A stretch of DNA of 63,983 nucleotides, counting the filler, from Collodictyon triciliatum (lineage: Eukaryota): assembly GCA_043381765.1 (NCBI GenBank). It is 8 parts of 8 records of this genome, joined end to end, with 100 filler letters (N's around TTAATTAATTAA, not from the genome) between each part and the next. Parts side by side here need not be neighbours in the genome. Positions count along the whole stretch, not along the records: positions 8,856 to 17,605 come from JBHJMP010003298.1; positions 17,706 to 26,451 come from JBHJMP010003299.1; positions 26,552 to 35,297 come from JBHJMP010003300.1; positions 35,398 to 44,138 come from JBHJMP010003301.1; positions 44,239 to 52,974 come from JBHJMP010003302.1; positions 53,075 to 61,808 come from JBHJMP010003303.1; 2 more parts are not named here. The stretch is one strand, 5' to 3'. Shown here piece after piece: positions 9,333-60,602 of the stretch (positions within the stretch are counted from its first letter, which is position 1; each line of letters opens with the position of its first letter). Below the pieces are notes generated by a model. That model was not told the DNA's origin. It ran no database searches and was given only the letters and a program-made list of their open reading frames with translations. A program made the translations under genes and the position numbers.

Positions 9333-9553
9333 CCTGTTTAACTGCATTTCGGAGTCACCACTATACCCTTTGCTTATTACGCACATCTGTGGTACGTGGT
9401 CATCATTCGTCCTCCTCTTTCAAGATATTTAGATGGCAGGGCTTTTATATATTTTAAATTATTCATTCCTTTTAGATATCCGCATTTAATACCATGCCGA
9501 TTCGAATGATAGATGTATTATAGCCGTGAATAACATGAAAATGTAAAAAAAAA

Positions 9554-9589
9554 TTTTTTCCTTTATTCGATTCAAAGTGTAGCGAGGTT
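9554..9589 (+). mobile_element. 36-bp Fanzor-end-like insert flanked by a 19-bp direct repeat (copy A)
   Basis: TTTTTTCCTTTATTCGATTCAAAGTGTAGCGAGGTT lies between ATGAAAATGTAAAAAAAAA (9535-9553) and ATGAAAATGTAAAATAAAA (9590-9608). It closely matches 53783-53824. Confidence 0.8.
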
Positions 9590-12500
9590 ATGAAAATGTA
9601 AAATAAAAATATATGTGGAAGGGCAGCAATTTTATTATAATAAACATACCAGCTTCGAACGGCTGCACTCACCAGAGATTGGTCTTTTGTCATTCGGTGT
9701 GGCCAACATTCGTCGAAAATGATATTCTATTTTTCACCGATAAAATGGTTAGCTGTTGGTCGATTTTAAATACATTTGGGGGCTATTGCGGTTTTCACGC
9801 CGCCGCTAAATGAAAACTACCAAGGATGACCTCGAAAAACATGAGATGTTTTATTGAATTCATGTTATGGTACCAAATATCAGTTCGAGGCATTTCACCA
9901 TTTTTTCCCTTTATTCAGAATCATTTTATCATAAATCGTTGCAGTCTTTGGTTCTCTCTAATCCCTCGTTAACCCCAAGCTCTATTTCCATGAGCTTGTA
10001 GGACATACTAGAGCAGGTCGGATCTGATACTGATATTTTTTTTTTAAAAAAAAAAAGAAAAAAAGGCAGCTTCATATTAGCACTGGCGTCTTTTAATTAT
10101 CCTTTCGCTTCGGCGTCTCGATACTGGTCGGCTATTTCCCTGTTGGAACGGGCTGCTGAGGCGCGTGCTTCGAAGCCATTGAAAATTCTGGAAGCAACGC
10201 AAACGCGTCTGAGGACATCACTAACGCGTTTCTGAAAGGGGTTTGCTTATGCGATACCGATCACAGAATCACAAGACACAGGGCAGCCACACCTCACCAC
10301 TTCCAAGAGCAACACTCTTGACTCTCGCGCCCAGGGTTTTCCAAGCCGAGCAATGGTGAATCAGTATAGTCTTGAAAAGTGATCAGAAGCGAGGAAGGAA
10401 AAAGAAAAGGATGTAAGAGCCCAACTCATGTACAACGTGGCTCTTTGTTTTTTTATGCCAGGTTTTTCCATGCTTCGCTTTGTGGGAAGACTTGTGCTTC
10501 ACCATGCACCGGCTCGTTTCAGTCTTTACTCCACCAGCTCAGCAGTTCACGAGATAACCCTTACGGAAACTTGTGTGAAGGTATACAGCCTTGCCTTGCT
10601 TCATTTTGACACAATTATGCTTATTGGACTAGTGCTTTGCACAACGATGAGTTGTGTCCGGAATCCTTTTTTCTTAAACCCTTTTCTTATTGCTAGGTAT
10701 AAGTCAGTTCCTTCAGCCCGCGTTTTTTTTCTCATCACTCGTCTGTTTCTTCTCACTTTGTCTTGTTCAAATTTTAGATACCCTTTTGGCTCTGGCATAT
10801 TTTTTCTATAATAATAATAATCATAATCATAATCATCGTTCTACTCGATATTGAATGTGTACTTGTTAGTTCTTTGGGCCCCTCGATATTTTCTTACCTT
10901 TTTTTCACCTTCATGAATAGAGAGTAGCGGATATTGGTAAGTATCTGCGAGTATCCGTGGACGGAGGTGGATGCTCAGGATTTGTTTATAATTTTACCTT
11001 CGAAGATGGGCCACAGCAACGCGACCTGTATTAAGAAAACCGTTCTCTTCATTCACTCCGATCACACTTTTAAAATTATTATTCTTAATAATAATTATTT
11101 TATCACATTTGAATGCACTAAAATTACGGCGAATGATTCTTTCATTTCACAATTGAAATTCAATACTGTTTTCTCACATAAAGGTTGTTAGGATTAAGCA
11201 TTTTTCATCGATTTATATACTTACAAACTGTGTTTCATCATTTTGCAGACTGATTGAAAGTCATGGTGCCAAAGTTCTCGTCGATCCCGAATCTCTCCCA
11301 TTTCTCAAGGGCTCTACTATTGACTACCAAAAGGAAATGATATCTTCATCATTTCGAATTCAATCCAACCCAAACTCGTCTTCGAATTGTGGCTGTGGAA
11401 GGTCATTCAATCCAAGCACTTGAGTGTGCATTGGGCACCGAATAAGCAAACGGAAAAGCATACAAAATATTTGGCCTTTTTTTATATCATTAAAAAAAAG
11501 TGAGAGAAAGGGGGAATGTTGTCATGCAATCATTTATATTTCCAAGTGAATGCAATAGTTTGGGAATCTTAATGAAATTATATCCACATTAAAATGCCAT
11601 CAACCACGATGATGTGTTTTCATTCTTTTGTTTCGCTCAAGAGTGAAAACATCTCAAGCGTTCAATACCATCATGTTTCTGACGCCTCCCACACCATCAC
11701 CTCAGCTCTTGTTCGTTGATATGGAGTGTGAAAATATATCTATGCATGGTCTTTGATATGCCTTTGTCATATTCTCCCTGTCAGCGCTTAGATTTATTGC
11801 GCAATATGCGATGTCCCTTCATATACCAAAACCCAAAAAAAAAAAAAATTTTGTCGCTTTAGTCTGTGGACGCGGCCGCGCTTTCTCAATTTCTTGGCGC
11901 ACTGGATGTGAAGAGATATGATACTGTGGTGTTTGTAAATAGGGTATGTAGTGGACATTATCGGCTCTGTATTGATTTGCGCATGGCCTTTGTACAACCG
12001 GAACTGGACTTTTTATTTCCTTCCCCTGAATATTTTGTTCATATTTTGGGCTTTGTAAGACCCATGTGAAACTGACCATCACCTCTGTAAACCACCATTG
12101 TAGCCCTTAGTCTGAAAGTACCCTCAGAAAGATTGAACTCTCAGTAATTAGTAACTGGCAATAATTTTCAGAATGAGTAAGACGAGCGTTTCAATATGTA
12201 GCAAGAGAGCAAGCGAACGAGAATGGACTTGTATGTACACGAATGCCGCCCTGTCGCCGAAGTGCTCGTATTGAAAAGGACTGTGTCTGATAGGTTGGAG
12301 TCGGTCCAGATAAGCAAGAGAAAACACAAGTCTCGTTGGATGAAGCGCTAAGAACACAGGATATATCTCAGTTTGCCACAAGGCAGAGAATGGAATTATG
12401 TGGCAAACGCTCCGAGATTTGAGACTTTTATTGTCAGGTTATCGCCGATCCTACTTCCATCGAATCCTTCAAAGCCGCGGATGCGCACTCGAACGAACAG

Positions 12501-12931
12501 TAGTTGCCTCATACTTAAGTTTGATTTTGATTTTGATTTTATTTTTACTTTTACTTTTTCCTTTTCTTTTCTCTTTTTAGATTTCATTTTTTTTTTACAT
12601 TTTTTTACATTTTTTTACATTTTTTTTTATATATTTTATATATTTTTTTATCTACCCAGCAACCAACGCAGTCACTTTACAAACCCACGCGTGATTTATA
12701 GCGCTTTGGGGGTCAGCCTTCATCTCTCGAGAAACACATAGCGCAAACAACACAGTAGGCGAAAAGGTAAATAATTCAAACATGCAAACAAGCAAACGAC
12801 GGACTAAGAGAAAAGCTAGCCTGACTAAGATAAGACCCGTTTTTCTTCCATAGTTTTCGAAGAAACAAAAAGAGTGTTACAAAAGGTGGCCTTGCTTACG
12901 CCGTAAAAAAAAAACCCTCCGCCGCTTAGTT

Positions 12932-15900
12932 ATGCCTCGAGCAGCCTTTGCTGTCAAGATCAGCGCGCTAACGTCAAGCCGATCTGAGCGACCTGCGACA
13001 TGTCCAGCGATTCGCCGCTATTCAAACCCTCTCTGCAGTCCTGGTATCACCGCTGCTCTACCTTCTTCCTCTTCCCCGCCTTTGCACCCACACGATTCGG
13101 AAGTATATCAACGGTACTTTGAGAAGTATGCCTCGGGTTAGTTTTCGTATTTCATTTATTTTATTACTCCAGTTAACCCCGTCTATTTTGGTCTTGGACG
13201 CTATGTTTGTGTTTTATTTTCTCTTCTTCCTTTTATACATACACGTGGGTAGGTGATGTTTCTAAATGAAAAAAAAAACGCTTTGTCTTTGGGGTTTGTG
13301 CAGCTCAAGGGCATCAAATGGTATTGCCCAATGCAAGGTCTGAAAAGCTACGAGATCAGCTGGCTGAATTCGAGAAAGCGCTCTTCCTGCAGAGAACTAT
13401 CAGTATGGCCAGCGATAGTCGCGATAAGTTGCAGGTTTGGTCGCTGCCTTATAGTGTATTATCTTCAATCCTTTTGTATTCCTTGTTTTTTCTTTTTGGT
13501 TTTATAGTTATTTATTTTTCAATTAAATTTAAAAAGGATTACCATATATCGCGAATTATGTGTGCTTGGTATTTAATGAATGTCCTCAATTGCGGGCAGA
13601 TTCTTCTGGCATCTGGGTCGTGGGCGAGTTTGCATCTCCATCCGCTGACTTCTGATGTGTCACAGATTGTCATCGAAAAGCCGAGTAGCTCCTCCATATC
13701 ACCAAGCTCAGTGACGTTATGTATGTTGAGGCCTTTTATCATAAACCCATATAGTAAACCATTCAAAGGTATTCTATTATTCATTACACTTGTCCCGTAA
13801 CCGGCTAATGAGACAAAAATCATTCTTCATTAATTCAACTCAGCATGTCACAAAGATGGTGGTTCTGTATATGTTGTTGACCATCGTTCTGTCTTTATCA
13901 TCGATGGGAAGAGAGGACCACTTGGGGATTTATCGAGTAAAAAAATGACTTCTCGCAAGGTTTTTTTTTTTCATCAGTACTTACCAAACAGAAAATACCC
14001 AAAGTTCTTACTGGACCAATATTTTGGAATAATTTATTCATCTTCCTAATCTCTTGATGGTAATTGTCCAACAGATAGAATTTGAAACCAATTGTATACA
14101 AGTCGATGCTAGTGAAGACTTTTATATTATTGTTATTCAGACCGAAAACAGTATATCTATATATGGAACCTTACATGACAAGTTTGTATATTATTCACGG
14201 ATTATACCTGCCCATTTTTCTGACGAGCGTGCATTTGGATATTCGATCAATCATCTACGCACTTAATTGAACGGCATCTCTCTTGTTGAACTATGAAGGG
14301 ACTTGAAAATATATCCTATAGCCAAGCTTCAAGGAAAAGGCGTAATTAGAGATATAAAAGTCGCGTATGATTCTCATTATTATTCGTTACTATTTTATTT
14401 CTAATATGCTCATCTTTGAGATTAAGATTGAACTGTTTTTTTTTTCCTTTATCAGATTCAAAGTTGATATAGATTGAGTATTACTGTACCAAATATTATG
14501 GAAGGCATATTTTGTAACTTCATTCATGTTGTTCAATAGGAAAGAACAGGCATTTTATCACATTCATGTTATGCAACAACCCTACGAAGATTCGTCTGAC
14601 TTGGTTCATGTTTTGTATGAATGTAATGGCAAAAAGGTGATCATGTAAAACGATTTCATTTTTTTCTATTCATCATGGCCTATTTCATAAGCGAGTTTAA
14701 ATGAGATGGGGTTTTAATCAAACGGGGAAAGCTATTATTTCCTTACTAATATTGAACCTTTAGATATCCAAGGTAAAATCAACGACCATCAAACTCATTT
14801 CGAGGGTTTTTTGTGTCTCGCTTGCTCCTCAAGGGAGTATCATGTGGATGGTAACTTTTTTTTTTTTTTTACGGCTTAATCCTTACATTCTCAGTTTTTT
14901 TTCTCAAAGTCCTGTTGCTTGGTACTGTTTCTTTTATCTGAAGTAATTGATTGTTGAAAGTTGAGTTTTCTTAATAGGGATGTGAAGATGGTGGAATATT
15001 GTGCTACGATTATTCTGCAGACGTTGTCAAAAGAAAACAGACCGGATATGGAGTATAGCGATTTCTATCTTATTATGATTTCTATTTTTTTTCGGTATTT
15101 GTCATTTTATTATGTTTTTTTTTATTGTATTGTTTCTTTCTGTTTTATCAAAGTAAATTTCTGTTCCTATTTTTGAATTCTTTCGATAGTCTAAATCTTT
15201 CTGTTTTTTCAAGCAATACATCCTCAAATACCTTATTCAGAATGATTCTTGTACTACTGTAGGCTATCCTTAGTTTAACATGGCACCCTCATTCATCTTT
15301 TGTAGTTGCAATACACAAAGGAGGTGTAATGAGGTATACATAAACACATTTTAAAAATCGTGACGTAGTTATGTTGAATTGATTAACAAAATACCCGCTA
15401 CAATATTTCTGATATATCTATTTATCTATACCAAAGAAGTGAATTAGCCACAAAATAAAAAATATAGTTGGTCTGTAGGTGTTATGATGTTGGATCTTAT
15501 TCTTTAGACTTTGTGGTCGAAGGCCTTGACCCTACGCAAAACTTGAGCCTTCCTGAAATGCTAGGGTGCTCTTCAATACTCAACTATACAATTTTATATG
15601 GTCGGCTAAGCCAGTATGTATCTTTTACAGGGGATAACGCAATCAACACCTTTTTAGTTTCCAGACAGGTATAAAGCACGTACACTGGTGCTTGGGCTCT
15701 GACCTTGCACGTCCCAACCCGAACACGTGTGACATTCTCGCCATTTGCCTAGAAAGGTTTTTTTTTTAAAAAAAAAAAATAGCAATCTAAGTTAGCGAGG
15801 GAAAAAAATATGAGTGATGTTTCTGTGAATGATTACTTATATTGCTAGTAAGTTTGATTTCTTGCATAGAGGTCCGGTTGTAATCGTCCGTTTTGAACTT

Positions 15901-17420: not shown

Positions 17421-17503
17421 GAGTTTGTGTAGTTTGTGCACGAGGCGAACAAATAATTGCGAACAGAGAAAATAAGGGCATCCGCTAAAGAATGCTTATT
17501 GCT

Positions 17504-17605
17504 TGTTTTTGTTTTTGTTTTTGTTTTTGTTTTTGTTTTTGTTTTTGTTTTTGTTTTTGTTTTTGTTTTTGTTTTTGTTTTTGTTTTTGTTTTTGTTTTT
17601 GTTTT
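17504..17605. repeat. (TTTTTG)n microsatellite at contig end
   Basis: Tandem hexamer read directly. Confidence 0.95.
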
Positions 17606-23107: not shown

Positions 23108-23253
23108 GACAGGAGAAGGCGTCGGCACTTGCTTCGACACGAACCTCGGCATAAACACAGAATCAGCAGGGAGGCTATCGAGTGTTTTTCTCTTTATGGT
23201 TGCGATACAGCCTAAGAAGAGGGACGAAGCGGGGCGGGGTTGCGTGGGGGCGC

Positions 23254-24857
23254 TTATTTCTTCTTGGCAGCACCCTTGGCGGCGGGGGCGGCACCACCCT
23301 TCTTGGTCTCGACCTTGCGGGTGACCTCCTTGATGACACCGACGGCGACGGTCTGGCGCATGTCACGGACGGCAAAGCGGCCGAGGGGAGGGTAGTTGGC
23401 ATAGGACTCGACGCACATGGGCTTGGAGGGGACGAGGGTGACGATGGCGGCGTCGCCCGACTTGATGAACTTGGGGGCAGCCTCGAGCTCCTTGCCAGAG
23501 CGGCGATCGATCTTGGTCTTGATGTCGGCGAACTTGCAGGCAATGTGGGCGGTGTGGCAGTCCAGCACCGGGGTGTAGCCGTTCTGGATCTGGCCGGGGT
23601 GGTTGAGCACAATGACCTGGGCCGAGAAGTCGGAGCACTCGAATGGGGGGTCGTTCTTGGTGTCGCCGGCGACAAAGCCGCGGCGGATGTCCTTGACCGA
23701 GACGTTCTTGACGTTGAAGCCGACGTTGTCTCCGGGCAGGGCCTCGGGCAGGGCCTCGTGGTGCATCTCGACCGACTTGACTTCGGTGCTCACACCCGAG
23801 GGCGCAAAGACGACAGTCATGTTGGGCTTGAGGATGCCGGTCTCGACACGGCCGACGGGCACGGTGCCGATGCCGCCGATCTTGTAGACGTCCTGCAGCG
23901 GCAGGCGCAGCGGCTTGTCCGTGGGGCGCTTGGGCGGCTCAATCAGGTCCAGTGCCTGCAGCAGGGTGGGGCCCTTGTACCAGGGCAGCAGGGGCGAGGC
24001 CTCAAGCATGTTGTCGCCGGTCCAGCCAGAGATCGGCACGAAGTTGACCTTCTCGGGGTTGTAGCCCACCTTCTTGATGTACGACGAGACCTCCTTCTTG
24101 ATTTCCTCGTAGCGCGACTCGGCGTAGTTGACCGTCTTGTCGTCGAACTTGTTGAGGGCGACGATCATCTGCTTCACACCGAGCGTGAAGGCCAGGAGGG
24201 CGTGCTCGCGGGTCTGGCCGTCCTTCGAGATACCGGCTTCGAAGCCTCCGGTCGTCGAGTCGATGACCAGGATGGCGCAATCGGCCTGCGAGGTTCCAGT
24301 GATCATGTTCTTGATAAAGTCGCGATGGCCGGGGGCGTCGATGATCGTGATGTAGTACTTGGGGGTCTCGAACTTCCACAGGGCAATGTCGATGGTGATA
24401 CCGCGTTCACGCTCGGCCTTCAGCTTGTCAAGCACCCAGGCGTACTTGAAGGAGCCCTTGCCCATTTCGGCGGCTTCCTTCTCGAACTTCTCAATGGTAC
24501 GCTTGTCAATACCACCGCATTTGTAGATGAGGTGGCCGGTGGTGGTGGACTTTCCAGAGTCGACGTGTCCAATGACCTAATAGTCCGGATGTTGGGTTGG
24601 TCGTGTGTCACTGGGTCTCACAGTAGGGCTTTGGCCACGTGAGAGTTCTAGGGGGTGGTGAGAGGCTGCTTGTGGTCAAGTGTGAGGGAAGGTGCGTCAA
24701 CTCGTCCTGGCCTCTAAGCGGAAGGCTAGTTGCTGCCTGGGCTCAGTTCGTGCCCCTCCCTCCAGCTTCTTGAGCCACAAGGTTGACTCTTCCCACGGGG
24801 AGAGGGAATGAGGGAAATACTTACGACAATGTTGATGTGAGTCTTCTCTTTGCCCAT
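23254..24857 (-). CDS. EF1A: Translation elongation factor 1-alpha (exons 24857-24825 and 24576-23254)
   Basis: [37 protein letters not shown]... through [23 protein letters not shown] intron at 24824-24577; strong C/G-ending codon bias. Confidence 0.99.
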
Positions 24858-26029
24858 TGCGATGCGAGGGGGTTAACGCTGTTGAGGTAGGTTGACGTGT
24901 ACCGAGGTTGTGGTGAAGTGAACGTGAGGCTTTGAGTGCTAAGGCGAAAAAATTGCAAAGAGGGCAGGCGAGAGCAATTGGTCCGTTTATATACGGTTCC
25001 ATAGGTTGTCTATGTGGTGGTCTTTGTTTTGTGGGCATAATTTTTTGTTTCATTTTCCTTTCGATACTCGACTTATTGGAATATTCCAAGAGAAAGCATT
25101 TGCTGGCGCCCATGGAATTACTTAGGGAACGGATGTCCATGGATTTCGCTCGTTGGTTTGGGCGAATTTCGGCTTCGCCGGTCTAAATGGGGAATATGGC
25201 TTTGAATGTTTTTGTTTTTTGGTTGTTTAGAACGGCCTTTATAATATATTCTATATATGGGATTGGATTCCAATAGCTTGAGTGGTTCCTGTTTTGGATT
25301 TTATCCGCATTTGAATAAAGACCACACCTCCGTACATAAATTGCTGCTATGTGTGGTCAATCGTCTCAATTGCTGCTATCTGTCTCGTCCGTCTTGCTCT
25401 TACTTAGATTGCACATTGCTAATGCGCGGCCAAAGCCTGGGANNNNNNNNNNNNNNNNNNNNNNNNNNNNNNNNNNNNNNNNNNNNNNNNNNNNNNNNNN
25501 NNNNNNNNNNNNNNNNNNNNNNNNNNNNNNNNNNNNNNNNNNNNNNNNNNNNNNNNNNNNNNNNNNNNNNNNNNNNNNNNNNNNNNNNNNNNNNNNNNNN
25601 NNNNNNNNNNNNNNNNNNNNNNNNNNNNNNNNNNNNNNNNNNNNNNNNNNNNNNNNNNNNNNNNNNNNNNNNNNNNNNNNNNNNNNNNNNNNNNNNNNNN
25701 NNNNNNNNNNNNNNNNNNNNNNNNNNNNNNNNNNNNNNNNNNNNNNNNNNNNNNNNNNNNNNNNNNNNNNNNNNNNNNNNNNNNNNNNNNNNNNNNNNNN
25801 NNNNNNNNNNNNNNNNNNNNNNNNNNNNNNNNNNNNNNNNNNNNNNNNNNNNNNNNNNNNNNNNNNNNNNNNNNNNNNNNNNNNNNNNNNNNNNNNNNNN
25901 NNNNNNNNNNNNNNNNNNNNNNNNNNNNNNNNNNNNNNNNAAAAAAAGAAAAAAAGAAAAAGGTATGAGATATAATTATAATAATAATATGCTAGAAAAT
26001 CCAAATATTTCTTTTTCGCTTATACAGTA

Positions 26030-26654: not shown

Positions 26655-26669
26655 ATTATGTATTCACAG

Positions 26670-29144: not shown

Positions 29145-32100
29145 TTAAGCGCCCTGTTTTGGGTTTGGTTTGTCCTCTCCAAGTACGCTGAGCTGACCTA
29201 GTATATCGAATCCGCTATCCGCCGTTGTTACGTTACCATAATCAACCTGGTAGCCTCGTAAGGCGGAGTGTGATGTCCAGACCAGGAGGAGATCAATTTT
29301 ATTCCCATCAGCCGTTGGATCCAATTTTGGCCTCCAAACATACGTGAATCCATTTTCTCCTGTTGTTATAATGACATCGTTCTCTGGACAATATTTTATA
29401 GCTCTGACTTGATTGTGGACCGTGAGCTCGTAAAAAACTTGTACATCCTCAGGTCCTCTAGCAGTAGTCGGCGAATTTATAATATATAGAACTCCGCTCT
29501 TTCCTCCGTAGATTATGTATTCATCTTTGCCGATAATGAATGTATCTAACGCGTAAATAGGTGTTTCTGATTCAACGAGTATAACCTCCTTATGATTTGG
29601 TTCTCCAGTCAAGGACAAGTCAAAGTCAAGGCGACAAATGATTCCGTTTTCGTCTCCTACTACAATGGATAAATTGCTGGGGTCGTCGTTGGTTCTCATG
29701 AATACAGGCGCGATGGGTCTATCCACTTCACTAAATGGCTTAACTTGAGCCAGGATATTAGGGTTAATTCGGATTCCTGTCTTTGTTCCATCCGGTTCAA
29801 TTTCACGGCAGATGACTACACCACTTTCCATTGTGACAATGAAGGGATTTGGCCTGTTGGGGAGAGACTGAACAGAAAAGACAGATATGTCTTTCGTTAT
29901 CAATAGTTCCTGGGAAGGTTGATGGGTGACAGATTTTGACGGCTCAGAAGAGAGACACTCGGCATACAAAGTGGAACGCGTGCAGTAAAACAGGTAATCA
30001 TAGTTGCGAATGCCTACAATTTTGAAACAAATGATACCATCTACCGCAGTAATTGACTTTGCCGGGTAGCTGGGGTCAAAAGGATTGATGCGGGTTAATG
30101 TCCTATTTCTATCTGTCAACTGGTAATATATTTCAGCCTCTCCTTTCACTTTCCTTGCAGTCAGTCTGTAAACTTGAGAGTGCAGAATATGAGAGGAAAG
30201 ACAATTGCCCAAAGAAATATCCCAGACTTTGATATGTTTGTCACTGCTCCCAGTAATCAGTAATCCAGATGTATTTAAAACATCTGAAAGTAATTTCTCC
30301 TGGTGGTTGCTTGGAGTGACTGGTATTCTCGGTGGGGTTGAAAAAAAGACAACTGAAAGTGTGTTAATAGCTTTCTGGTGTCCTCTAGCCTTCTTGATGA
30401 GCTCCGTCGATGAGAGATTCCATATCCAAGCAGATTTGTCCTTACTGCATCCAAGCAAGTAATATGAATTGGAATACTCAAAAATATGCACAGTAGATAC
30501 TTCCTGCATATGGCCGAAGAAAGGCCGAACAAGATTTTCTTCTGCAACATTCCACAAGTAAACCATTCGGTCTGCATCCGAGGAGATCAGTAATTCAGGT
30601 TCGCCATTAAGGGCAGGAAGCCATGCAATATCTAAAATACTCTTATCGTGACGGTTGGTTAATTTCTGATAACATTTGTGGCCCTCAGTCTCCCTGTCTT
30701 CGCCAAATGCTCTGGAATCATTCTTTAAGAAACTGGTTGTATCGAATAAAAGTATGTCACTGCCCACAGCAACCGCAATTTTGTATCGGTCCTGGTACTT
30801 TATCGATCGAATCGCCTTCACTTGTTTGTCAGCCGAGTGCATTTTCCCAGCATTTACAAAATCAAAAGATTTTTTTTCTTTATCATAAGTAACCTTTGAA
30901 ACGTTAATGCAAGGAAGCTGTCCACCATAGATTACATATGAATCGGACTTTTCATAAAAAAAGTCAAGTGACCGAATGGAAAATAGCTCCCTTTTAAGAG
31001 ATACGACGACCGATGAATTCGGTTCTGTTTGATACTCATTGATATTGATTTTACATATTCCGATTCTATTATCCAAACCAGAATAAGCAAATACTACTTC
31101 TTCGGGCATTTTGCCAAACCCAAGAGAGTCCTTTAACTCCTTGCTTGTGTGGATGGATGTAATTTGACCACTACCACCCAGAGTATCGCACTCTAATTTA
31201 ATTTTGGTTTCAAATGTAAGGGAGTCCCAGATGTAAATTTTCCCGCTTCCATCGCCTGTGATCATATATGTTTTGCAATCAGTCATGGTTATGGCTGTGA
31301 CAAGCACATCAGGTTGTTCCGCGCTGTGTTTGTTATACTCGTTGGAACTCAGATAGCAGGACTCAAGATCGGACGAGTAAATTTTCCCCTCTGAGACAGT
31401 AAACAATGTTGATGAATTATCCACAATTCCAACATAGCCATGAGACACAGCGTCTTTGTGTTCGACCTTTGGTAGCTGTCCAAAGTTTGCCCCATCCATT
31501 CTTGCTCGTCCAAAGCGGCAGCCACTCACATCTGCATCCATGAATGATACATTTTCAAGATTAGCGCCGCTAAAATTCACACATTGTAACACACTTTGAG
31601 AGAGGTCAGCCCCAGATATATTTACGCCTGCAAATTCAGAGCAATGGAGAGGGATGCGCGCATAATTCAGTATTGTAATTGCCATACTTGCACACTTTGA
31701 ATAATGTAAGTCTCCAGGCTGCTGTGCAGAGAATTTAACAATTTCAATTAGTTTTTCTGCAAATTTCAAATTACTTGACGTGTAATCAGCCACAAATTGC
31801 TTTATCAGAATATCCTTTTCCTCAAGGCTAGAGAGCAATGACCTCCTTGTCTTCCATGCTGCTGTCTTCGAATCCACCTCCTTAACAATCATTTTGGCCC
31901 CAAAAAATTCCTGGATGGAACGGTGGACAAATCCAAATTTCTCCACATCTTTGGATGCCTCAAAGCACCGTATCATCACACCTTTTCGAATTTCCTTCAT
32001 ATGAGGAGTGTCATTAAAGAACGATTCCCATAGTACATCTGATGCTCCAGTCCTTCTCTTTTGCACAATGGCCACTGTTGTGCCCTCTTTGATGAGGACC

Positions 32101-34919: not shown

Positions 34920-35208
34920 TGCGACGGAGCGATCTCTGATTGGCGGTGTGGATTTGCGCTGCTCTGGCCGTGCCTGTCATGCCGTGTGGGTTATTGAGGA
35001 TCAAAAGATTCTGGGAGTCGTGCCTGCTTATACCTTGTGTTGGTGATAACATTCAGTGAATTGGTGAGAGTTTGGAAATTCCAGGTTTGGTTTCTTTGGT
35101 GGGGTGCTGTGCTTCAACCAGAGCGTTCTCTGAATCGCCTGCCGAATTCCCGCTGCAGTTCCTTAAGTGATATGTATGTATGTTTGTTCATGGAGCGAAA
35201 AGAAAAAG

Positions 35209-35297
<89 letters not shown>

Positions 35298-35759: not shown

Positions 35760-43860
<8,101 letters not shown>

Positions 43861-44365: not shown

Positions 44366-47300
44366 ATGTCAGTACACACAAGATGAACTTTTATCGATGA
44401 AAATGGAAAATGCATTTCAAATTCTTTTGAAATACTATGGTGAAACATGTCCTTTATACCAAGAAGGATTTGGTGATAGAATTTTATCATCTTTCAAGCA
44501 TGGAAATCGCATACATTCGTTTTCATCAGGAAATAGTGTGTCTGAATTGGATTTAAGGGATGAATGTGCATCACTAGAAGCACATAGTTCAATGGAACAA
44601 AATATTTTCAAGTCGAAGAATTTTGAAGCCCCATATTTCCAAACTATTTTCCGTGCAGATAAGACCAGAAGTGAAAAGACTATGAGCCAATATGACCTAC
44701 TAGTTCAATTTTATGAAACCCTCGAGGGTATTGATTGGTTTGACGATAGCGGTTGGAAGAATTTGAGTATTCCCTTATGCGATTGGTATGGAATTCAGTG
44801 TTATAAACGCTGCTCGGTCAAGGAGTATCTGGTTTGTTTTTCAATTATCTGTGTATCATTATGTTCCACAAACCATGTCGCTCATCGCATATTTACATAG
44901 GGTAATACATGCCCTATCGTTGGGTTTGCTATGTCAAGGAATAATCTTAATGGAGACATTAGCAATGCTTTTTCAATAATTGAGAAATTTCCATACCTGG
45001 CTGATATAGATTTTGGATTCAATTTGATATATGGGAACTTAACAGACTTTAATCTACCAAGCTTGCTGTCGTTGAATTTACTAGGGAATAGGATAACCGG
45101 AACAATACCAGACTTTAAAGGGATTCCGAATATTGACAAACTGCAGTTGAGTGCAAATGACTTAGAGGGCACTATGCCTGATTTCTCGAATATTAGATTG
45201 GTAACGACTATAGATATTGGATTGAGCAATAAAATAACAGGTTCCTTTTTTTTATTTCTACTTTCTACTTTCTGATTTCTGATTTCTGATTTCTGATTTC
45301 TGATTTCTGATTTCTGATTTCTGATTTCTTTTCGTATTATTCCTTTCATAGATTACTTTTTTCTTTATTTATATAAATATATACCTACTTATTTACGTAT
45401 TTATTCATTTATTGATTTATTGATTTATTGATTTATTGATTTATGGTATCATGTTTCATTTTACAAATCTCTTCAGGTACCATACGATCTATTCTTTAAA
45501 ATGTTTCTGAAATAAAAGTCCTTTTTTTTTTAGGATCATTACCGGATTTTTCCGGGTTACTTAATATCGAGACGCTTTTAATTCATGGGACTGAAATTCA
45601 TGGTATATATATTTGTTAAAAAAAAAATATAATCAGTATCTGATTTTAAGGACCATAGGACCGATCCCGGATTTTAGCAGCATTCCAAAAATTAGATTTA
45701 TCATTCTTTACAGTAACCAACTGGATGGTGAGTAACTTACAGTTTTTTTTTGGATGAAACGTGATACCCTAATTTACTCACCTATATACAGGAACCATTC
45801 CAGACTTTCGATATATGATAAACACCAATACCATAAGTCTCTCTCGGAATCGACTTTCAGGTAATTTTTTTATACCTAAGTGCTAGTTCCTTGACTGCAA
45901 ATTTTCTAGCATGAACACATAAATTGATGTCTTAGGAACAATACCAGATTTCAGGAGCTTCCCAAATGTTAAAACAATACTTCTCGTTAATAATGTATTT
46001 TCGGGTTGGTTGCTTAAATGTGTTTACTTTAAGAGTGACATGCTTGTTGTATTGTACCCATTTAATAACGAGAATCTTTAAATCACAGGAACTGTTTCAG
46101 ACTTTCGATATATGCCTGAGATAGAAGATATATTTTTCGATGTTAATCAGCTTAGTGGTTGGTTTTAATGAGGATGTTACGTTTCTCTTTTTCGAATTAA
46201 ATGGTTTCATTTATTCAATTTTTAGGCAGTATTACTGACTTCAAAAATACTCCAAAGATACAGATACATAGCTTTCTGATAAATATATTGAGTGGTTAGT
46301 TAAAATTTATCCAAGACAACATCATCCTCGTACCTTAAAGACTAAATTACTCCTGTTTTTCAAATTAGGCACAATTCCTGATTTCGAAAATATCACAAAT
46401 ATCAAAATCATGGACCTCTCACTAAATCAAATATTTGGTGGGTTTGATCGATTCTATCAAGAATTTGAATACCCTTTGTTGTTCTAACATCAATATTGAA
46501 AAATCAAGAAAATTAAACAAAATACCTAAAGGTACTATCCCTGATTTTAAAATACAATGCATCTCTTTTTAATCAGCTTTTTCAGCAACCATCTCAGTGG
46601 TATGTACAAAAATCACGCATTCATCCAAATTTTCTGAATAGTCATAGAAAAAAATTGTATTCTACCTTTTAATGTAGAGTAATAAAAAAAAAATTAAAAA
46701 ATATTTCCAGGTACCATTCCAAACTTTAAAAGTCTTCATTATCTCAGGATGATTAGCCTGTATGGGAACGAACTAACTGGTTAGATAATATTTCGGCCAT
46801 CAATATTTAGAAAAAGTGTTCAATTTTTTCATATTAACTGTAGGAATGATCCCAGATTTTTCAAAGACACCAAATATGGAGTGGATAGTTCTAGGAGATA
46901 ATAGGCTTAGTGGTGGGTATTATGTAAAAAGGTATATTGACATGAAATAATCTTCATTCCTTAAGTTCTTCATATATTTAGGGAAAATTCCAGAATTCAG
47001 CAACGTTCCAAACATAAAATCATTCAGCTTCTTCAACAACCGTCTTAGTGGTAAACTGCATAATTAACGACACAAATGCGCGCCACGATTTTAATGCGTG
47101 TGCTCATGACGAAATTTGACCATGAATTAGGAACAATACCTGACTACCACAACATCACAAAAATTGAGTTGATGGACTTTTCCATCAACCAAGTATATGG
47201 TAAATATTGTCTTCGGCGTGGTATTAAGTACATATTATGTGTTTATTTAATATTTTTTATTTTAGGGACTATACCAGACTTTAAAGGCATTCCAAATGTA

Positions 47301-50300
47301 AGATTGATTAGCTTTTTCAGTAACCAACTAAGTGGTAAGATTCTTTTCATCAACGCATTGGATTACATTTCCTATCCAATGGTTTTTTATTCTTTGAAAT
47401 CGCATTATGAAAAGCTAATTCTTTGATTCCACTAAAAACACTTTAAGGGACAATGCCGGACTTTAGTGGAATTCCTGGTGTCATTTTACTTGATTTTTCA
47501 ATCAATCAAATATACGGTAAGACGTTTAAAGATGGTAGCCAGGAAACCTTGTTCTCAATTTTTCTTATAAAAAAATCACTTAAGGAACCATTCCCGAATT
47601 TAATTACGTTCCCAATGTGGAAAGAATCGGTGTCCACAGTAATCATCTAACTGGTGAGATTTTCATCCTCCCATGTCATTATGGGAATAAAATTTCGAAT
47701 ACTGACCGAAATAATCAAAATAGGAACGATACATGATTTCAAAAGTATCTCAAAGGTTTCCTGGATCGATTTTGGTAGTAATAAACTTCATGGTAGGAAT
47801 CAATTTATAAGAAAGAAAAGAAAATGTCGGTAAACAAGACATGTTGATTCATTCCTATCTCCAAATTTAGGAACTGTTCCAAACTTTGGTAATATTTCCA
47901 TGATTCAAAGGCTCGGACTATACAGTAATCAATTGGAAGGTAATATTTATTTATACATGTAGTGTTTATTTATTGATTTATTAATTTATCATGCGAATAA
48001 AATGTGATGGTAATGTATCCTTTTTAAAATAAATAAATAATAGGAACTGTTCCAAACTTTTCCAACATTCCAGATGTTCGTTCGATTTATCTTTTTAGTA
48101 ACCAACTTATTGGTAGGCCTTAAAAATATAAGACATCAGTCGCCTGAACATTTTCATCTGAATATGTTTTTTAAAACTGTAGGGGAAATTCCAGATTTTA
48201 AAAATATCACGAAAGTCGAGAGAATTTACCTCTCAATTAATCGACTTAATGGTAATCTATTTACTGAATTCATTACAAAGAACAATTGATAAAGAATCTG
48301 TAAAACATCTATTATTTATTAGGAACTATTCCAAACTTTTCGAATGTAAGAAATCTGCAATATCTCTCAGTTTACGATAATTTGATCGAGGGATTTGTTC
48401 CAAATTTTGAACACTGTCCAAACCTGAAGGCTTTACTAATGTTCAGAAATCATTTTATCGGAACCCTACCTTCTTATAAGCTATCATTCCTAGAAATTTT
48501 AGATGCTGCTGAAAATCAAATTATCGGCTCTATTCCTCACGATTTCTATTTACCATCGATTGAATATATCGATTTATCAAGAAATGAAATGAATGGGACT
48601 GTACCAAATTATTTCGAAACTTTAACGAATTTGGAGTCACTAATTCTATCACACAATCAGTTCTCAGGAAGTATGCCCGACATGTTTTGGAAATTACCGA
48701 AATTGGTTACAATTGACTTGAGAAATAACTTATTTTTTGGAGATGTCAGTGTATTTATATCTCCTGTATCAACAGACTATGAATACTACTATGAAAATCT
48801 TCTTCTTGATGACAATCAATTGCATGGAGGTCTTAATTGGTGGATTTTCAATTTCGTCCTAAATCTAAAAATACTGAGTTTAAAGAATAATAATATTACT
48901 AAGCTCGGTGAACTCACTAACCTATTGAAGTGGAGTTCTCTAGACCTTTCTGGGAATCCTATCTCCGGTAGCATACCAGAATCATATAATCAGTTTTCTA
49001 AACTTGAATATCTAGGACTTAAGAACACTCCCATGAATCATGGGAGTGCTAACTTTCTTCCTGACTTTATGGATTTCACTTCACCGTTCAATTTAGAAAA
49101 CGAAAAAAAATTATACATATGTCCTTTAATCGTTGCAAGATTGGGTCTTATAAATATGACTGTAGATTTGGATCCAGAGTATTATGACCACGAGTTTTGT
49201 AAATGTCTACCTGGCTATACCGGTTTTGGAGATAATTGTGTGCAATGCCCAAGAGAATGCGAATGTTTCGATGGGGCATCCATAAAAAATTGCTATGCTT
49301 CTCCAAACTTGACTCATGTGAAATCAGTTCTTCCATGTCCGCGATTAAAATCATGTAGAACCGTAATTCCCGTTAAAAAGACCAAGTCTAATACAACGGT
49401 CGAAACCTCCTCTATATGCCAAGAGGGCTATAAAGGACATTTGTGTTCTCAATGCCAAGAAGGATATGGGAGCCAAGGAAGATTATGTGTAAAATGTGAA
49501 AAAGGAACTATATATTCGACCTTGACATTTGGGTTTATTGGATTCAGTATATTCATAATCTTCCTCTATCGCTCAGAAACATCGAAATCAGGTATTTGAA
49601 GCAAGTAGACAACTATTTTTTTGTTATAATATTTTCAACTAAACAAAATTTTATTAAAAAAATAATAGCTAAACTCAAAATTGTCATGTTTCACATGCAA
49701 ACTCTATCCATTATTTCATCTGGGTTCGTTCAGTCGGAAGATGCCAATAAATTTACCGATTATTTGTCATCGATTGGTTCCATTCAAATTCCGAATCTCT
49801 CTTGTGTATTGGGAATGGACAACATGTTCGACTCTCTCTTATTCAGTTTTTCAAGAATACTAGTTTTCATATTCTTCGGGTTGATTACCTATCACATCGG
49901 ACGTAGCCATATTCAAAACAAGGTATGATTAGAGAAGTGATATAGTAAATGTGTTCGCTTTAAAATATAGCTAAACCTGGTAATTATAAACTAGGCAGTC
50001 TTTATTACGCTCAATCTATTGTTCTTCATTTACTATTCGATTGCCAGAGAAGTATTTGGTGTATTTGGGTGCACTGTTTATGACGATGGAGAGGATATTT
50101 GGTATTTAAACTATGCTCCTTGGATACCGTGTAATCCCACTTCGAGAGAGTATCTAAAATTGCTTGGTATATCGATACCTGTATCTGCTTTGTTTTTGAT
50201 CGGATTCCCCATTTTTGCGTGGCAGAAGGTGGGAATAATGTCTGATAAATCTGGATATGAACCAGGAGCTCGATATGGATTCTTGTATTTGCCGTATAAA

Positions 50301-52890: not shown

Positions 52891-52974
<84 letters not shown>

Positions 52975-53181
52975 NNNNNNNNNNNNNNNNNNNNNNNNNN
53001 NNNNNNNNNNNNNNNNNNTTAATTAATTAANNNNNNNNNNNNNNNNNNNNNNNNNNNNNNNNNNNNNNNNNNNNTGTTCAGGAAGCTGTATTGCACGAGG
53101 CTCTCAAGCCTGGCTACATTGATTTCTCGTTCGGGTGAATCATTGGAGCGAGAGAATGCACGCACACTCCATAGGGATCGA

Positions 53182-53620
53182 AAATATATATCTATGAAAT
53201 AAAGATGCCAGATAGAACTTTCCAGATTTTATGAATAAGTAACTTTTCGAAAGATGAGATGGAGACAGTATGTTAATATAAAAAGAAGTGAAGAGTTGTT
53301 TATCGACCGAATCGAAAAGACATTTGGCAAGGATGTTGTACTGGCGTATAGAGACTGGAGCAGAAAATGTCAGATGAAACATATCAAGCCAACAATTGGA
53401 AGAGGATTACGAAAAATACTATCCAAACGTTTTGAAGCAGTTAGATGAATTTAGAACCTCCAAGATGTGCTGCAACTGCGAAAAAGGACTGGAATGTATG
53501 AAACTGAAAGGAAATACAAAAAAGATATATAAATGTCTCATGTGTAAAGAATGCAATCGGTCAGAAAGCAAACAAAGTGTATTCTTGACAAGGGACTTGA
53601 ACAGCTAATAATATACTCAA
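53182..53620 (+). pseudogene. Fanzor1 (eukaryotic TnpB-derived RNA-guided nuclease) C-terminal remnant with stops and frameshifts
   Basis: KYISMK*RCQIELSRFYE*VTFRKMRWRQYVNIKRSEELFIDRIEKTFGKDVVLAY[R]DWS...MKHIKPTIGRGLRKILSKRF / LDEFRTSKMCCNC...CLMCKEC...TRDLNS. These are the Fanzor1 GDWS-type motif, the DEFRTSK catalytic Glu, a CxxC-CxxC zinc finger and the RuvC-III RD. Confidence 0.88.
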
Positions 53621-53669
53621 GAAAGTTTTTTTACTCCAAAATATACATACATCTTTCTCTAAAAAAAAT

Positions 53670-53824
53670 AGGCTGTCGGGTCTTTCCTGGCAGCCTTCGC
53701 CACTACACGGCTGACATCATATATATGATGTCAACGGCCTTTGTGAAAGAAGTGATGAGACCTTGGATACTAGCGCACCAAATTTTTTTCTTTCCTTTAT
53801 TCGATTGGAAGTGCAGCGAGGTTA
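53670..53824 (+). ncRNA. Candidate Fanzor omegaRNA scaffold / element right end
   Basis: Lies just downstream of the Fanzor remnant. Hairpin AGGCTGTCGGG-TCTTT-CCTGGCAGCCT (53670-53696, two G-U pairs); palindrome TGACATCATATATATGATGTCA (53712-53733); terminal motif 53783-53824 shared with dispersed copies. Confidence 0.6.
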
Positions 53825-54500
53825 TGCCATACAAATGATGGTTAGAATTATATTGATATTTTTTGTCCATAGTGTGATTTGCTTTCTTCTTTTTTTTTTT
53901 TTTNNNNNNNNNNNNNNNNNNNNNNNNNNNNNNNNNNNNNNNNNNNNNNNNNNNNNNNNNNNNNNNNNNNNNNNNNNNNNNNNNNNNNNNNNNNNNNNNN
54001 NNNNNNNNNNNNNNNNNNNNNNNNNNNTTGTTCAATATCTTACGCTTTTTCTCCTTTTTCTTTGTTTTGCGCTCGCACCCCGCCACACCCCTTGAGCTCC
54101 AGCCTCGTCCATCCCTAAAATGGAATTTGTTGCCAACCTGTTGGCAGATTGATCCACAAAGCCAAGGAATTCCATTTGAATTTTGAATCTGGCCCCGAAT
54201 CAGAAGACCCAAGAAGAAAGGCAAACCAACCCACAGGACTGGGTGGGGCTGAGCCGCCGAGCCGAACCATGAAAACACTGGGCGGACGATAACAAGTCGT
54301 GGGAAAAACGCCCGCTGTTTCTTGAGAACTCGGGATCGACCCTATAGTCATGAGCACATATTCAGGAGAGTACAGATCAACCACATCTTCGCTCGAATCG
54401 TAACCCTCTTTGTCTTGGTACCTATCGCTTTGCCTCATAGGAGAAGCCAGAATAATGTCTGGGGCATCGGACGAACGACAGCGCGCTGGGGCATCCTACG

Positions 54501-55165: not shown

Positions 55166-55233
<68 letters not shown>

Positions 55234-56416: not shown

Positions 56417-57742
56417 AACAAACCAAGGAGATGTACTTCTGCTGGTCGGCTTAATTCCAACTTCAGGAGTGATTTTTCTTTTGTGTGTTCCTTTATTTTC
56501 TTCTCCCAATAACAAAACATCTCATCGCATTGACAGCTGTCGGACATCACGTCCAGGCGTTCAGTTTTTCCCTCCTCTTTCTTGAAACAAGCCGCGAGGA
56601 AAAAATAAATGTTGGCAAAAGAGTTCAAACATAGGATGCGCAACAACGGAGACGACACGAAAAAATACTTAAATATCCTAAATGTGGATATTATTAAATA
56701 ACATTATTTTAGTAGACTATGATTGATATTATAACGTAATGAGATGAAAAAATATCATATATGTACACGAGATTATTGTTCAATATACTTGTACGGTACC
56801 ACAACGGAAAATTTGCAGCTGATCAATATTTGCTGCCCATGAAATGGTTGCAATGAGCTCGATAGGAACCATGAAACCTCTTCGTCTCTTACAAAACACA
56901 GACAAACTTCGCCGCTTGTCAGGGTTCTCTGCGTAATACCCGCCAGTACATCCAAGTAAGAGGTGAGATAAAAACAAGTAGCTCAATGGCGCACAAGGTG
57001 CACCGACCTCCCTGTTATCCTCTACTCGTCCTGCCTCCCCGCCTCTCCGTCCTCCCTGCCCCCTCACTTCCCTAGCATTATTTGGTATCATACTATAGCA
57101 GCAGCAGCAGCATATTTTGGGGTCATACACTCCACCAAACAAATGGGGACATAAGATAGCTACAAACCACCACATGGGTGCCGTCTATGCCAAAACCTAT
57201 GAAAGTGGTCAACGAATCTGACCTTGCATGAGGTGTACATGTCCTATTAATATTTGAACGATCACCAAGATACACAGACCAGCCGCCATTTGGTATCGAG
57301 CTCGTTCTATCGCGTTCACCTGGTCCATTGAAAATTCGGAGCAAATTTCGATCAAAATGTAGGCAACTTGAGCACTCAAATGGGTTACTAGTCATTTTGA
57401 GATCTGGCATATACCGCTTGGCATTCGGTTTTCATAATTCCTGCCAGCCAGAAAAGCAAAGCCTACGGCCAACTCTTGGATGTCTCCGATCACCACACAN
57501 NNNNNNNNNNNNNNNNNNNNNNNNNNNNNNNNNNNNNNNNNNNNNNNNNNNNNNNNNNNNNNNNNNNNNNNNNNNNNNNNNNNNNNNNNNNNNNNNNNNN
57601 NNNNNNNNNNNNNNNNNNNNNNNNNNNNNNNNNNNNNNNNNNNNNNNNNNNNNNNNNACTCAATCATGAACTACAAGCCCTTTGCTCTCCTTACCGGCAG
57701 ACGTCGCCCCTGCTGAAGTGCCTTGTTTTCTTACCCCACAGA

Positions 57743-58443
57743 ATGGCCTCATACCAAACCAAGATCGCCAAGAAAGGCGATGCCACCGAAATCGAGAAGC
57801 AAGTTGCCCAGGCTCTCTTCGACCTCGAGTCCAACAACCAGGACCTCAAGGCTGACCTCAGCGACCTCCAAATTGCCGGTGTCCGCGAAATCGACGCTGC
57901 TGGCAAGCGCTCCCTCCTCATTTGGGTCCCCTTCCGCAAACTCAAAGGGTTCCACAAGGTGTTCATCCGCAACCTCTGCTTTTTTTCTCTAGATCCATCA
58001 CCAAGCTTGTAAAGTACTCAACCCCCATGGACAATAGCAGGCCCACTCTCACGGGTAGACCTAACATAACCTCTGAATAACAGGTTCAGACCCGCCTTGT
58101 CCGCGAGCTGGAGAAGAAGTTCAGCGGCGCCCACGTTGTCATCATTGCCCAGCGCCGCATCCTGCCCCGCCCATCCCGCAACAACCACATTGCCCGTCAG
58201 AAGCGCCCACACTCCCGCACTCTGACAGCTGTCCATGAGGCCATCCTCGAGGACCTGGTCTACCCCACCGAAATTGTTGGCAAGCGCACCCGCGTCAAGG
58301 TTGACGGTAACAAGCTGCTTAAGGTCTTCCTGGACCGCAAGGACCGCGAGACTGTTGAGCCCAAGTTCAGCACCTTCGCTGCCATCTACAAGAAGCTGAC
58401 TGGCAAGCAGGCCTCCTTCGAATTCCCCGTCCATGTCGAATAA
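57743..58443 (+). CDS. RPS7: 40S ribosomal protein S7 (eS7); exons 57743-57958 and 58084-58443
   Basis: [24 protein letters not shown]...[33 protein letters not shown]...[28 protein letters not shown]. Confidence 0.97.
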
Positions 58444-58639
58444 ATGGACAGTATGAGTCCCTTGTTTCATTACCTTCCCTGCGCGCATATACAGACACAA
58501 GAGTTGAGTGCTATCGCCTTCCTTCTCATGGGGCTTTAATACTATCACGCACTCGCATTTTTTTTATTTGCCCTTGTTGCTACGGAAAGTGTGTGTCTGT
58601 GTGCGTTGGGAGTGTGTTTATTCTCTGCGCTGCGAGACG

Positions 58640-59285
58640 CTATGGATGGGCTTTTTCCTCCTGCACAGCCATCACGGTTTTGAGCCACATGCGGATAACG
58701 TCCTGTCCTTTCTGCTCGGCGTTTTGTCTAATATCGGCGATTCTATTGTTTGTGTACACAGATAGGCTCTTGGCCTCCTCCTCGAAGGAACCTGCTTGCT
58801 GTGGATTCCATGGCATTATCAACCTCAGTCGAACGGTCTATTGCATATATATGTATGCGACACTGCCCAGCCAAAGCAGGATAGGAGAAGAGGCAAATGC
58901 TTGGGCAAGCGTGGCATGAGATAAGACCGGGCTGATTCCTTGTGTGCATTTACGAGAGAAGGACTGGACGCACCTTGGCCAACTCTGCCTTGTACTCGCG
59001 GTCCTTCTGTGCCCTAAACTCTGCAATCTCCCGCTCCGCTTCCTCTCTGGCTTGCCTGAGCCTGGCAACTTTTTCTGTGCAAGTTTCAGAGCAAAAGGAA
59101 GTTAGAGGTCTGGCTGGACAAACGAGAAACTAGTCTGTTTGCAGAGAGAGAGAAGGGATGCGAGTCACAGTGGGATTTGAGGAAAGGATTCTTCAAGCAC
59201 TTTGCCTTGCTTGTGCGATGGTTTCGGATGCCTTTGTCTCTGCGCGTAACAGTTGCTGGATTCCTTGGTTGCCGGCGTCACCCAT
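58640..59285 (-). CDS. ATP6V1G: V-type proton ATPase subunit G (exons 59285-59201, 59074-58974, 58798-58640)
   Basis: MGDAGNQGIQQLLRAETKASETIAQARQ|KKVARLRQAREEAEREIAEFRAQKDREYK; GT..AG introns keep the frame. Confidence 0.92.
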
Positions 59286-59836
59286 CGTGCTGGAGACTTT
59301 CAATTTTCCTACATTATTTGTTTTTACTTCATTTTAAAATATGCGCCACCGAGATAACCTAGCGAGAATGGCTCGTGTTATGCAAAGCCATGACGGAAAG
59401 TGGAGAGGCACTGGTCGCAGAGTCTTGATTATTTCTTATGCTTGTGGGGTTTGGAAGTGCGACCCTCGCTTTGATCATTTGGGTTGAAGATCGCAGAGGG
59501 TTCATTTCTGATTGATGTATGTTGATCGCAGCCCGCAAATTTCCGGAGGCGACTCGTTTGGTGCTGTGATTTTGTTGTGTTCATTTACATCCGATATAAT
59601 TTCAAAAGTCCAGTTTCTTGATTAATTTTTTTCAATATTATTTCGATTCTTGTGTTAGTGTCATTTTCATCCACCCGCCTGGAGCATCAATCGTGGTGAT
59701 TATTATAACAGTATGGCCCAAAGCTTTACTCATACCATGAGCTTTTGGGGGTAGCTCTATTCTGTCGATTAAACGAGTAGGCTTATTGTGTGCCAGACTC
59801 GAGACAGAGGAGCTTTGGTAGAAGAAGACAGAGAAT

Positions 59837-59857
59837 TTTTTTCCTTTATTCGATTCA
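59837..59857 (+). mobile_element. 21-bp truncated Fanzor-end-like insert flanked by a 17-bp direct repeat (copy C)
   Basis: TTTTTTCCTTTATTCGATTCA lies between AGAAGAAGACAGAGAAT (59820-59836) and AGAAGAAGGCAGAGAAT (59858-59874). Confidence 0.75.
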
Positions 59858-60121
59858 AGAAGAAGGCAGAGAATAATGTACGAAATTAGATATACGAGGC
59901 GAGTAGAGAATTAGGGGAGATGGAGAGGTATTACGAGGCATATAACAGCTCTAGTCTCTAGCCAAATGCAATGTCCTTGTTTAATTTTTCTTGAATCCCA
60001 CATAGACAGAAGAAATAACGCGTACAATAGCACTAGCAAAAGATGGAATGAAGGAAAGAGCAAGGGGAAGGAAAGAAAAAAACGGAAGAAAAATAAAAGC
60101 ATGATTAAGAATAATCTGATA

Positions 60122-60156
60122 TCCTCGCTGCAATTTGAATCGAATAAAGGAAAAAA
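60122..60156 (-). mobile_element. 35-bp Fanzor-end-like insert, reverse orientation, flanked by direct repeat AATCTGATA (copy D)
   Basis: Reverse complement reads TTTTTTCCTTTATTCGATTCAAATTGCAGCGAGGA. AATCTGATA is at 60113-60121 and 60157-60165. Confidence 0.78.
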
Positions 60157-60602
60157 AATCTGATACAGGCAGCATCTCCACCATCCCGCACAAAATTGAG
60201 AGGAAGAAAAAAAAAAGAAAGATAATCTGATACAAAGAAAATGGGCATCTATTGATGCTGTTACGAAGCTTTGAAAAAAAGTCCACAAATTGATGATGAA
60301 CCTTTTCACTGGAGATATACTTACAGACACAAAAATAATTGCATCATCTCCACCAATTATTTTTTCGGAACCGCTTTGACGTTTAGATGGTACAATGCCC
60401 TCTTTTGTTGAATTCAAATTTTAAGAGCGCTGTCACGCAAAGAGTGATTGAAGTAGACACACAGGGAAGTGTCATAGCATGAATATTTTTTTTTTTTTGG
60501 TGAATGTAAGACACTGCATAAAAAGCTAGTCAAACCGACTTGACCTGTCCACGAGCTATTGTATTGATTTACTATTTGGGTGAAAAGCATATACTAAATC
60601 TG

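Follow-up and report, generated by a model that had tools for sequence, protein, structure and literature searches.

What is a short motif, bordered by a run of T residues and repeated at unconnected places, doing in a stretch of Collodictyon triciliatum DNA, where one of its copies stands close to the remains of a Fanzor nuclease gene? The stretch, hereafter the window, has 63,983 bases and consists of eight ~8.7-kb contigs joined by N44-TTAATTAATTAA-N44, with a few internal N runs. A first-pass annotation, made from the sequence alone, had suggested that the copies represent the 3' end of a Fanzor element or of its omegaRNA, left behind as scars of Fanzor-induced breaks. We found that the motif belongs to a poly(A)-type long interspersed nuclear element (LINE) resident in the source genome and forms its 3' terminus, that is, the last 42 nt of its 3' untranslated region (UTR), which ends in AATAAAGG, followed by poly(A). 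The inserts are very probably severely 5'-truncated, aborted copies of this LINE's own RNA made by target-primed reverse transcription (TPRT), and every isolated insert would go back to a separate retrotransposition event that was aborted.

The 13-mer CCTTTATTCGATT occurred exactly four times in the window (+ strand, 9560, 53794 and 59843; - strand, 60138-60150), in agreement with the four motif copies that had been annotated at these places. When up to two mismatches were allowed, 12 matches were observed against 3.49 expected, a number reached in 0 of 100 shuffles. Read on the opposite strand, each copy has the form ...(CTTT)GAATCGAATAAAGG followed by A6-A11; the poly(A) end is common to all copies, and the other end is variable. 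A degenerate fifth copy was also detected. These tail copies, designated c1 to c5 (Table 1), are located on contig 2 (8856-17605) and contig 7 (53075-61808). A search of viral contigs yielded no exact match to a 27-nt degenerate version of the motif.

The parent element was recognized when metagenome contigs were scanned once for exact matches to the 19-mer TGAATCGAATAAAGGAAAA. This 19-mer was present at 40 loci; similarity was confined to the 19-mer itself in 39 of them and extended upstream in a single locus, L012. This sequence is 1157 bp long, and its minus strand holds a 202-aa open frame with a C-x2-C-x8-H-x4-C pattern, which matches Pfam zf-RVT (PF13966) with 32.4 bits, above the cut-off of 27.5. 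The zf-RVT family is a zinc-binding domain of the open reading frame 2 (ORF2) proteins of non-long terminal repeat retrotransposons. On the minus strand of L012, the zf-RVT ORF is followed by a stop codon, a 93-nt 3' UTR ending in TTTGTATGGCATAACCTCGCTACACTTTGAATCGAATAAAGG, A10 and an AT-rich flank. The tail motif of the window corresponds to the final 42 nt of this UTR plus the poly(A), and in L012 it is contiguous with the C-terminus of ORF2 and its CCHC-type zf-RVT domain. The first-pass annotation had itself stated that its proposal would be contradicted if the motif proved to be the 3' tail, with poly(A), of a LINE or SINE family, and L012 displays exactly this arrangement, with a LINE.

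All five short copies could be aligned to the end of L012, with one 3' boundary and differing 5' boundaries. In c1 the match (39/39) continues through 9592, which gives 33 LINE nt if the overlap is counted; three of these (CAT on the element strand) are in common with the flanking duplication and form a microhomology at the 5' junction. The final base of c3 overlaps its duplication as well (1 nt), and in c4 the LINE-derived part would grow to ~31-32 nt on inclusion of one mismatch and of the duplication's ATA, a possible junction overlap. Thus, microhomology of 1-3 nt is seen at two 5' junctions and possibly at a third. The longest short copy, c2, does not end at GAGGTT; 12 further bases, ATGCCATACAAA, which extend to 53835, also match the UTR of L012. 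The 5' ends therefore differ among the copies, and the annotated stop of three of the four at one GAGG(T/A)T point did not hold. Across the copies, the LINE-derived lengths are 16, ~19, ~28-33 and 42 nt, so that a shared 3' end with poly(A) is combined with variable 5' truncation, as in LINEs. As a separate observation, a 61-nt AT-rich unit is present twice in tandem (8987-9108; 92% identical, family D16) ~450 nt upstream of c1.

Table 1. Tail copies, their flanking duplications and other features discussed in the text (positions along the window)
Feature	Position	Strand	Description
c1, LINE tail copy	9554..9589	-	A6 (9554-9559 as T6) + 30 nt of LINE 3' end (9560-9589)
c1 duplication, poly(A)-side copy	9535..9553	.	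partner 9590-9608, 18/19
c1 duplication, copy at truncated 5' end of insert	9590..9608	.	partner 9535-9553
c2, longest short copy	53783..53835	-	A3GA7 (53783-53793 on +) + 42 nt of LINE 3' UTR (53794-53835); 48/52 to L012
c3, LINE tail copy	59836..59858	-	A7 + 16 nt of LINE end; 23/23 to L012
c3 duplication	59820..59835	.	partner 59858-59873, 15/16 (16/17 with ambiguous T)
c3 duplication, second copy	59858..59873	.	partner 59820-59835
c4, LINE tail copy	60122..60158	+	28 nt of LINE end (60123-60150) + A6-8; 37/40 to L012
c4 duplication AATCTGATA	60113..60121	.	partner 60157-60165, 9/9; first A ambiguous with poly(A) (8-9 bp)
c4 duplication, second copy	60157..60165	.	partner 60113-60121
c5, degenerate fifth copy	14436..14464	-	A10 + ~19 nt; 27/29 to L012
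ORF2 C-terminal coding fragment	53075..53176	-	101/102 identical to L012 396-497
LINE reverse transcriptase fragment, first motifs	8414..8755	+	RVT_1 31.8 bits; runs off end of contig 1
Degenerate Fanzor/TnpB-like C-terminal remnant	53282..53605	+	frameshift and stops; outside repeat family

Duplications of variable length (9-19 bp) are present at three of the five short copies, and those reported at c1, c3 and c4 in the first-pass annotation were confirmed. As a control, 20,000 random positions were taken per copy and abutting repeats at least as good were counted. Equal or better duplications were found at 103 (c1), 186 (c3) and 224 (c4) positions, mostly in simple-repeat tracts. Each duplication is unusual at a level of ~0.5-1.1%, and the three jointly are far beyond chance. 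From the junctions 9553/9554, 53782/53783, 59835/59836 and 60158/60159, the nicked-strand sites would be AAAAA^ATATA (c1), CAAA^TGATG (c2), AGAA^TAATG (c3) and AGAT^TATTC (c4). They are A-rich before the putative nick, with TA or AT after it, and a primer ending there would not pair with poly(A) (n = 4).

It is likely, by analogy with TPRT of L1 and R2, that the inserts formed in a few steps. The LINE endonuclease would nick one DNA strand, and the reverse transcriptase (RT) would prime at the nick and begin to copy the LINE RNA at the poly(A). Synthesis or the template would then fail after 16-42 nt, and a cut in the second strand 9-19 bp away would give rise to the target-site duplication. 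Finally, the end of the short cDNA would be joined to the target, using the 1-3 nt of microhomology at two junctions and possibly at the third. PMC2912911 gives 5' truncation, duplications, microhomology at the 5' junction and, in some truncated copies, short duplications as the signature of L1-type TPRT. LINE-mediated TPRT had also been offered in the first-pass annotation as a second option, with an antisense Fanzor RNA as the template. The mechanism and the minus-strand end, AATAAAGG-An, agree with our data; the antisense Fanzor RNA does not, the template being the LINE's own sense transcript.

To characterize the family, we searched for proteins related to the L012 ORF. A word-index search against longer proteins detected none at E<=0.001, and 14 were detected at the same threshold when 1.84 billion representatives were searched exhaustively. 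Half of these (7/14) are short fragments with 59-98% identity; zf-RVT was carried by three of the four short fragments first scanned and by P0007, and P0006 was without it. Four others are proteins of 1226-1275 aa with 29-38% identity over the C-terminal region, and all four contain both Exo_endo_phos and RVT_1, that is, AP-endonuclease (APE) and RT in one protein; L012 is too short to show these domains. One of the four, P0009, could be aligned with human LINE-1 ORF2p (residues 3-871, E 3.4e-57), and its alignment to R2 proteins was limited to the RT. It should be noted that this match to human ORF2p in PDB comes from a relative of ~30% identity and that the matched PDB entries include no APE-type LINE other than L1. 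The relatives with 29-38% identity suggest that the family belongs to the AP-endonuclease type of LINEs; this is an assignment at the level of type, and we do not claim the L1 clade. In databases, relatives of the family are unnamed or designated "hypothetical protein".

These relatives also bear on the possibility that the inserts are fragments of processed pseudogenes, derived from an abundant cellular mRNA whose 3' UTR ends with the motif. AATAAA, poly(A) and duplications would equally mark retrocopies of mRNAs, and short ones are known in human (PMC2831318). However, in L012 the motif is preceded by an ORF with zf-RVT, and the relatives of this ORF are proteins with endonuclease and RT, not a cellular gene. 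A cellular mRNA is thus a most improbable source.

Parts of the LINE body are also present in the window. The ORF2 C-terminal fragment at the start of contig 7 is a sixth copy of the element, 5'-truncated at 53176 inside ORF2 and running off the contig. The RT fragment at the end of contig 1 shows 35-42% identity to P0009-P0012, and its closest relatives are metagenome fragments at 61-63%. This fragment, which has no physical link to the tail, may belong to the tail's LINE family or to a related one. It was found by tblastn and lies outside the 86 + 70 stop-to-stop frames of the window that were analyzed with Pfam, in which no RT was detected. LINE coding sequence thus forms one end of two of the eight contigs, which indicates that the assembly breaks in LINE copies and that long copies are under-represented. 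That only tiny copies are seen whole is probably due in part to short-read contigs breaking inside longer ones. Most contigs terminate in microsatellites or homopolymers, a pattern like that of AT-rich eukaryotic genomes assembled from short reads, and G+C content is 30-45% across most 2-kb bins of the window. In a comparison of a unique 3.5-kb stretch of the window with sequencing runs, no run contained a share greater than 0.15. Contig-internal N runs, distinct from the 44-N spacers and 124-498 bases in length, which may be assembly gaps or masked stretches, were observed at 7658-7947, 25443-25940, 53904-54027 and 57500-57657; the run at 53904-54027 starts ~70 nt past c2.

The Fanzor remnant near c2, which had given rise to the original proposal, does exist; it is degenerate, and its support is weak, as the match to Pfam Cas12f1-like TNB has 18.6 bits, under the cut-off of 26.3. 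Its frames read ...DEFRTSKMCCNCEK...CLMCKEC...FLTRDLNS and then run into stops, with a frameshift upstream. We take these residues to resemble the zinc finger and the last RuvC motif of TnpB-type nucleases. Among database proteins, P0036 (68% identity) and P0037 (61%; TNB 19.9 bits) are closest to the remnant. In the ESM Atlas, the top matches of the upstream half were unnamed viral clusters, and TnpB-like clusters appeared only at 0.85-0.87, values that serve as leads only. The remnant is located between the LINE fragment of contig 7 and c2, the latter ~180 nt downstream.

This proximity is one argument for regarding the inserts as scars of Fanzor-induced double-strand breaks, formed by abortive copying of the right end of the element or of the omegaRNA. 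A second is provided by P0036, which contains a translation of the motif, NFFPLFDS. This peptide corresponds to poly(T)+CCTTTATTCGATTC and matches c3 in 8/8 residues. Its context points elsewhere, however. P0036 has 13 extra residues, ANFFPLFDSTLTA, right after ...TRDFNS, within the C-terminus of the nuclease, and the window sequence (53590-53631) continues at that place without them. Judging from the protein, the P0036 locus is probably another tail-only insertion and the window copy the empty site, so that the two motifs would stem from separate insertions rather than from a common element end. If the motif were a Fanzor right end, independent copies should carry it at a constant distance behind the nuclease gene; instead, it is inside the nuclease C-terminus in P0036, ~180 nt downstream of the remnant in the window, and behind a LINE ORF2, without any Fanzor gene, in L012. 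Because its position differs between the two Fanzor remnants and because it has no Fanzor context in L012, the motif is not the end of a Fanzor element. The 12 additional UTR bases of c2 agree with the LINE origin. Moreover, it is the poly(A) end that is constant among the inserts, and variation falls where the 3' tip of an omegaRNA would be; copying of such a tip should produce the reverse pattern. SpuFz1 cuts after bases 16/17 and 20/21, a stagger of ~4 nt according to PMC10432273, and fill-in of such ends would not give duplications of 9-19 bp. We therefore regard break scars as an extremely remote explanation. The Fanzor remnant is merely flanked by two LINE pieces and is unrelated to the inserts.

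Several observations weigh against the view that the inserts are aborted TPRT copies of the LINE RNA. As the first-pass annotation had recorded, c2 lacks a flanking duplication of at least 6 bases; it has at most a 4-nt CAAA overlap. No significant duplication was found at c5, where the best gapped alignment was equalled in 144 of 2000 shuffles. The four inferred nick sites do not resemble TTTT^AA, the site of L1, at which a T-rich primer able to pair with poly(A) is left (n = 4). L012 covers the C-terminus of ORF2 only, and a frameshift, seen in comparison with the intact relative P0015, precedes the part of its frame that runs on to the stop. None of the copies found joins the exact tail to RT and endonuclease domains in one piece, and the zf-RVT matches in three of the long relatives are sub-threshold (22.6-24.8 bits; Pfam cut-off 27.5). 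Finally, c1 and c4 have almost coincident 5' ends, ~1-3 nt apart, a possible sign of a preferred stop or of a discrete short RNA. A preferred stop finds no structural explanation in the UTR, since the fold of its 93 nt plus A4 (-12 kcal/mol, z = -0.03) is not significant.

A discrete short RNA would be either SINE-like (SINE, short interspersed nuclear element) or a processed 3' fragment of ~30 nt with the LINE tail, mobilised in trans, and the very short length of all five assembled copies would fit such a source as well as the similar ends of c1 and c4. But the 5' ends differ overall, and the sequence is wholly collinear with the LINE UTR. SINEs combine a pol III promoter head with a LINE-like tail; inserts of 16-42 nt are too short for such a head, and Rfam gave no match at gathering score over the whole window. 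Small size is also expected from an assembly that breaks in longer copies, as the two contigs ending in LINE sequence illustrate. Retrocopying of a discrete short RNA thus appears quite unlikely, if somewhat less so than the Fanzor and mRNA explanations. All three alternatives are contradicted by the collinearity with a UTR downstream of zf-RVT together with the variable 5' ends, and we retain aborted TPRT of the LINE's own RNA as the best explanation.

Other features of the window were coding regions. A frame for eEF1A (23257-24576, - strand; 440 aa, GTP_EFTU E 2e-56) is intronless and has a local G+C content of 0.56, compared with 30-45% elsewhere. On the same strand, 29148-34976 is occupied by one open frame of 1943 aa with matches to NACHT, pentapeptide-repeat and WD40 families, and it looks like a large intronless gene for a STAND-type nucleoside triphosphatase. 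An array of leucine-rich-repeat coding units with LRR_4 and LRR_8 matches is located at 44901-49596 (+ strand), where the direct-repeat families D8, D9 and D13 code for G-T-I-P-D-F-like units.

These data have consequences for annotation. On the wrong strand, short poly(A) inserts with duplications beside a Fanzor remnant give an exotic impression, yet they are standard LINE debris, and LINE tails of 20-40 bp will escape annotation pipelines. In addition, contig breaks in LINE copies bias the view of the family, and a long-read assembly could characterize it.

Compared with the Fanzor/TnpB omegaRNA right end, the likeness is one of proximity only, in a single copy ~180 nt downstream of a remnant. 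The motif of the window is located in a LINE 3' UTR, its conserved end is the poly(A), and a guide-like variable 3' flank is absent; the duplication lengths of 9-19 bp also differ from the ~4-nt stagger given for SpuFz1 in PMC10432273. Another parallel is found in short mRNA retropseudogenes (TSDscan, Terai et al. 2009; PMC2831318), which are likewise recognisable only via poly(A) and duplications. That paper describes very short human retrocopies with poly(A) and target-site duplications and ascribes them to truncated templates or aborted reverse transcription. The templates there are cellular mRNAs used in trans, whereas the inserts of the window derive from the LINE's own RNA.

The inserts also resemble 5'-truncated L1 copies, which, according to PMC2912911, have a common poly(A) 3' end, variable 5' ends, 5'-junction microhomology and variable duplications, some of them short or missing. 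The distant relatives of the window LINE also have the architecture of APE, RT and C-terminal zinc domain and align with human ORF2p. On the other hand, the copies in the window are 16-42 nt long, far below typical annotated L1 fragments, with tails of just 6-11 A; none of the four inferable nick sites reads TTTT^AA, and AATAAA is placed just 2 nt before the tail. Tail-only inserts occur here at a density of ~1 per 12 kb of assembled sequence. It is conceivable, but in our opinion rather unlikely, that TPRT in this family is aborted unusually early and frequently, with thousands of 16-42 nt inserts at a non-L1 nick (~RAW^WAWT) and without a T-rich primer. If so, the AATAAA of every insert could serve as a ready-made polyadenylation signal, and should the density apply to the whole genome and not just reflect the reach of a short-read assembly, the genome would offer a natural system for the study of early TPRT abortion. 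This kind of feature is well known from L1, and what may be new is at most the family itself and possibly its share of ultra-short copies and its non-L1 nick site.

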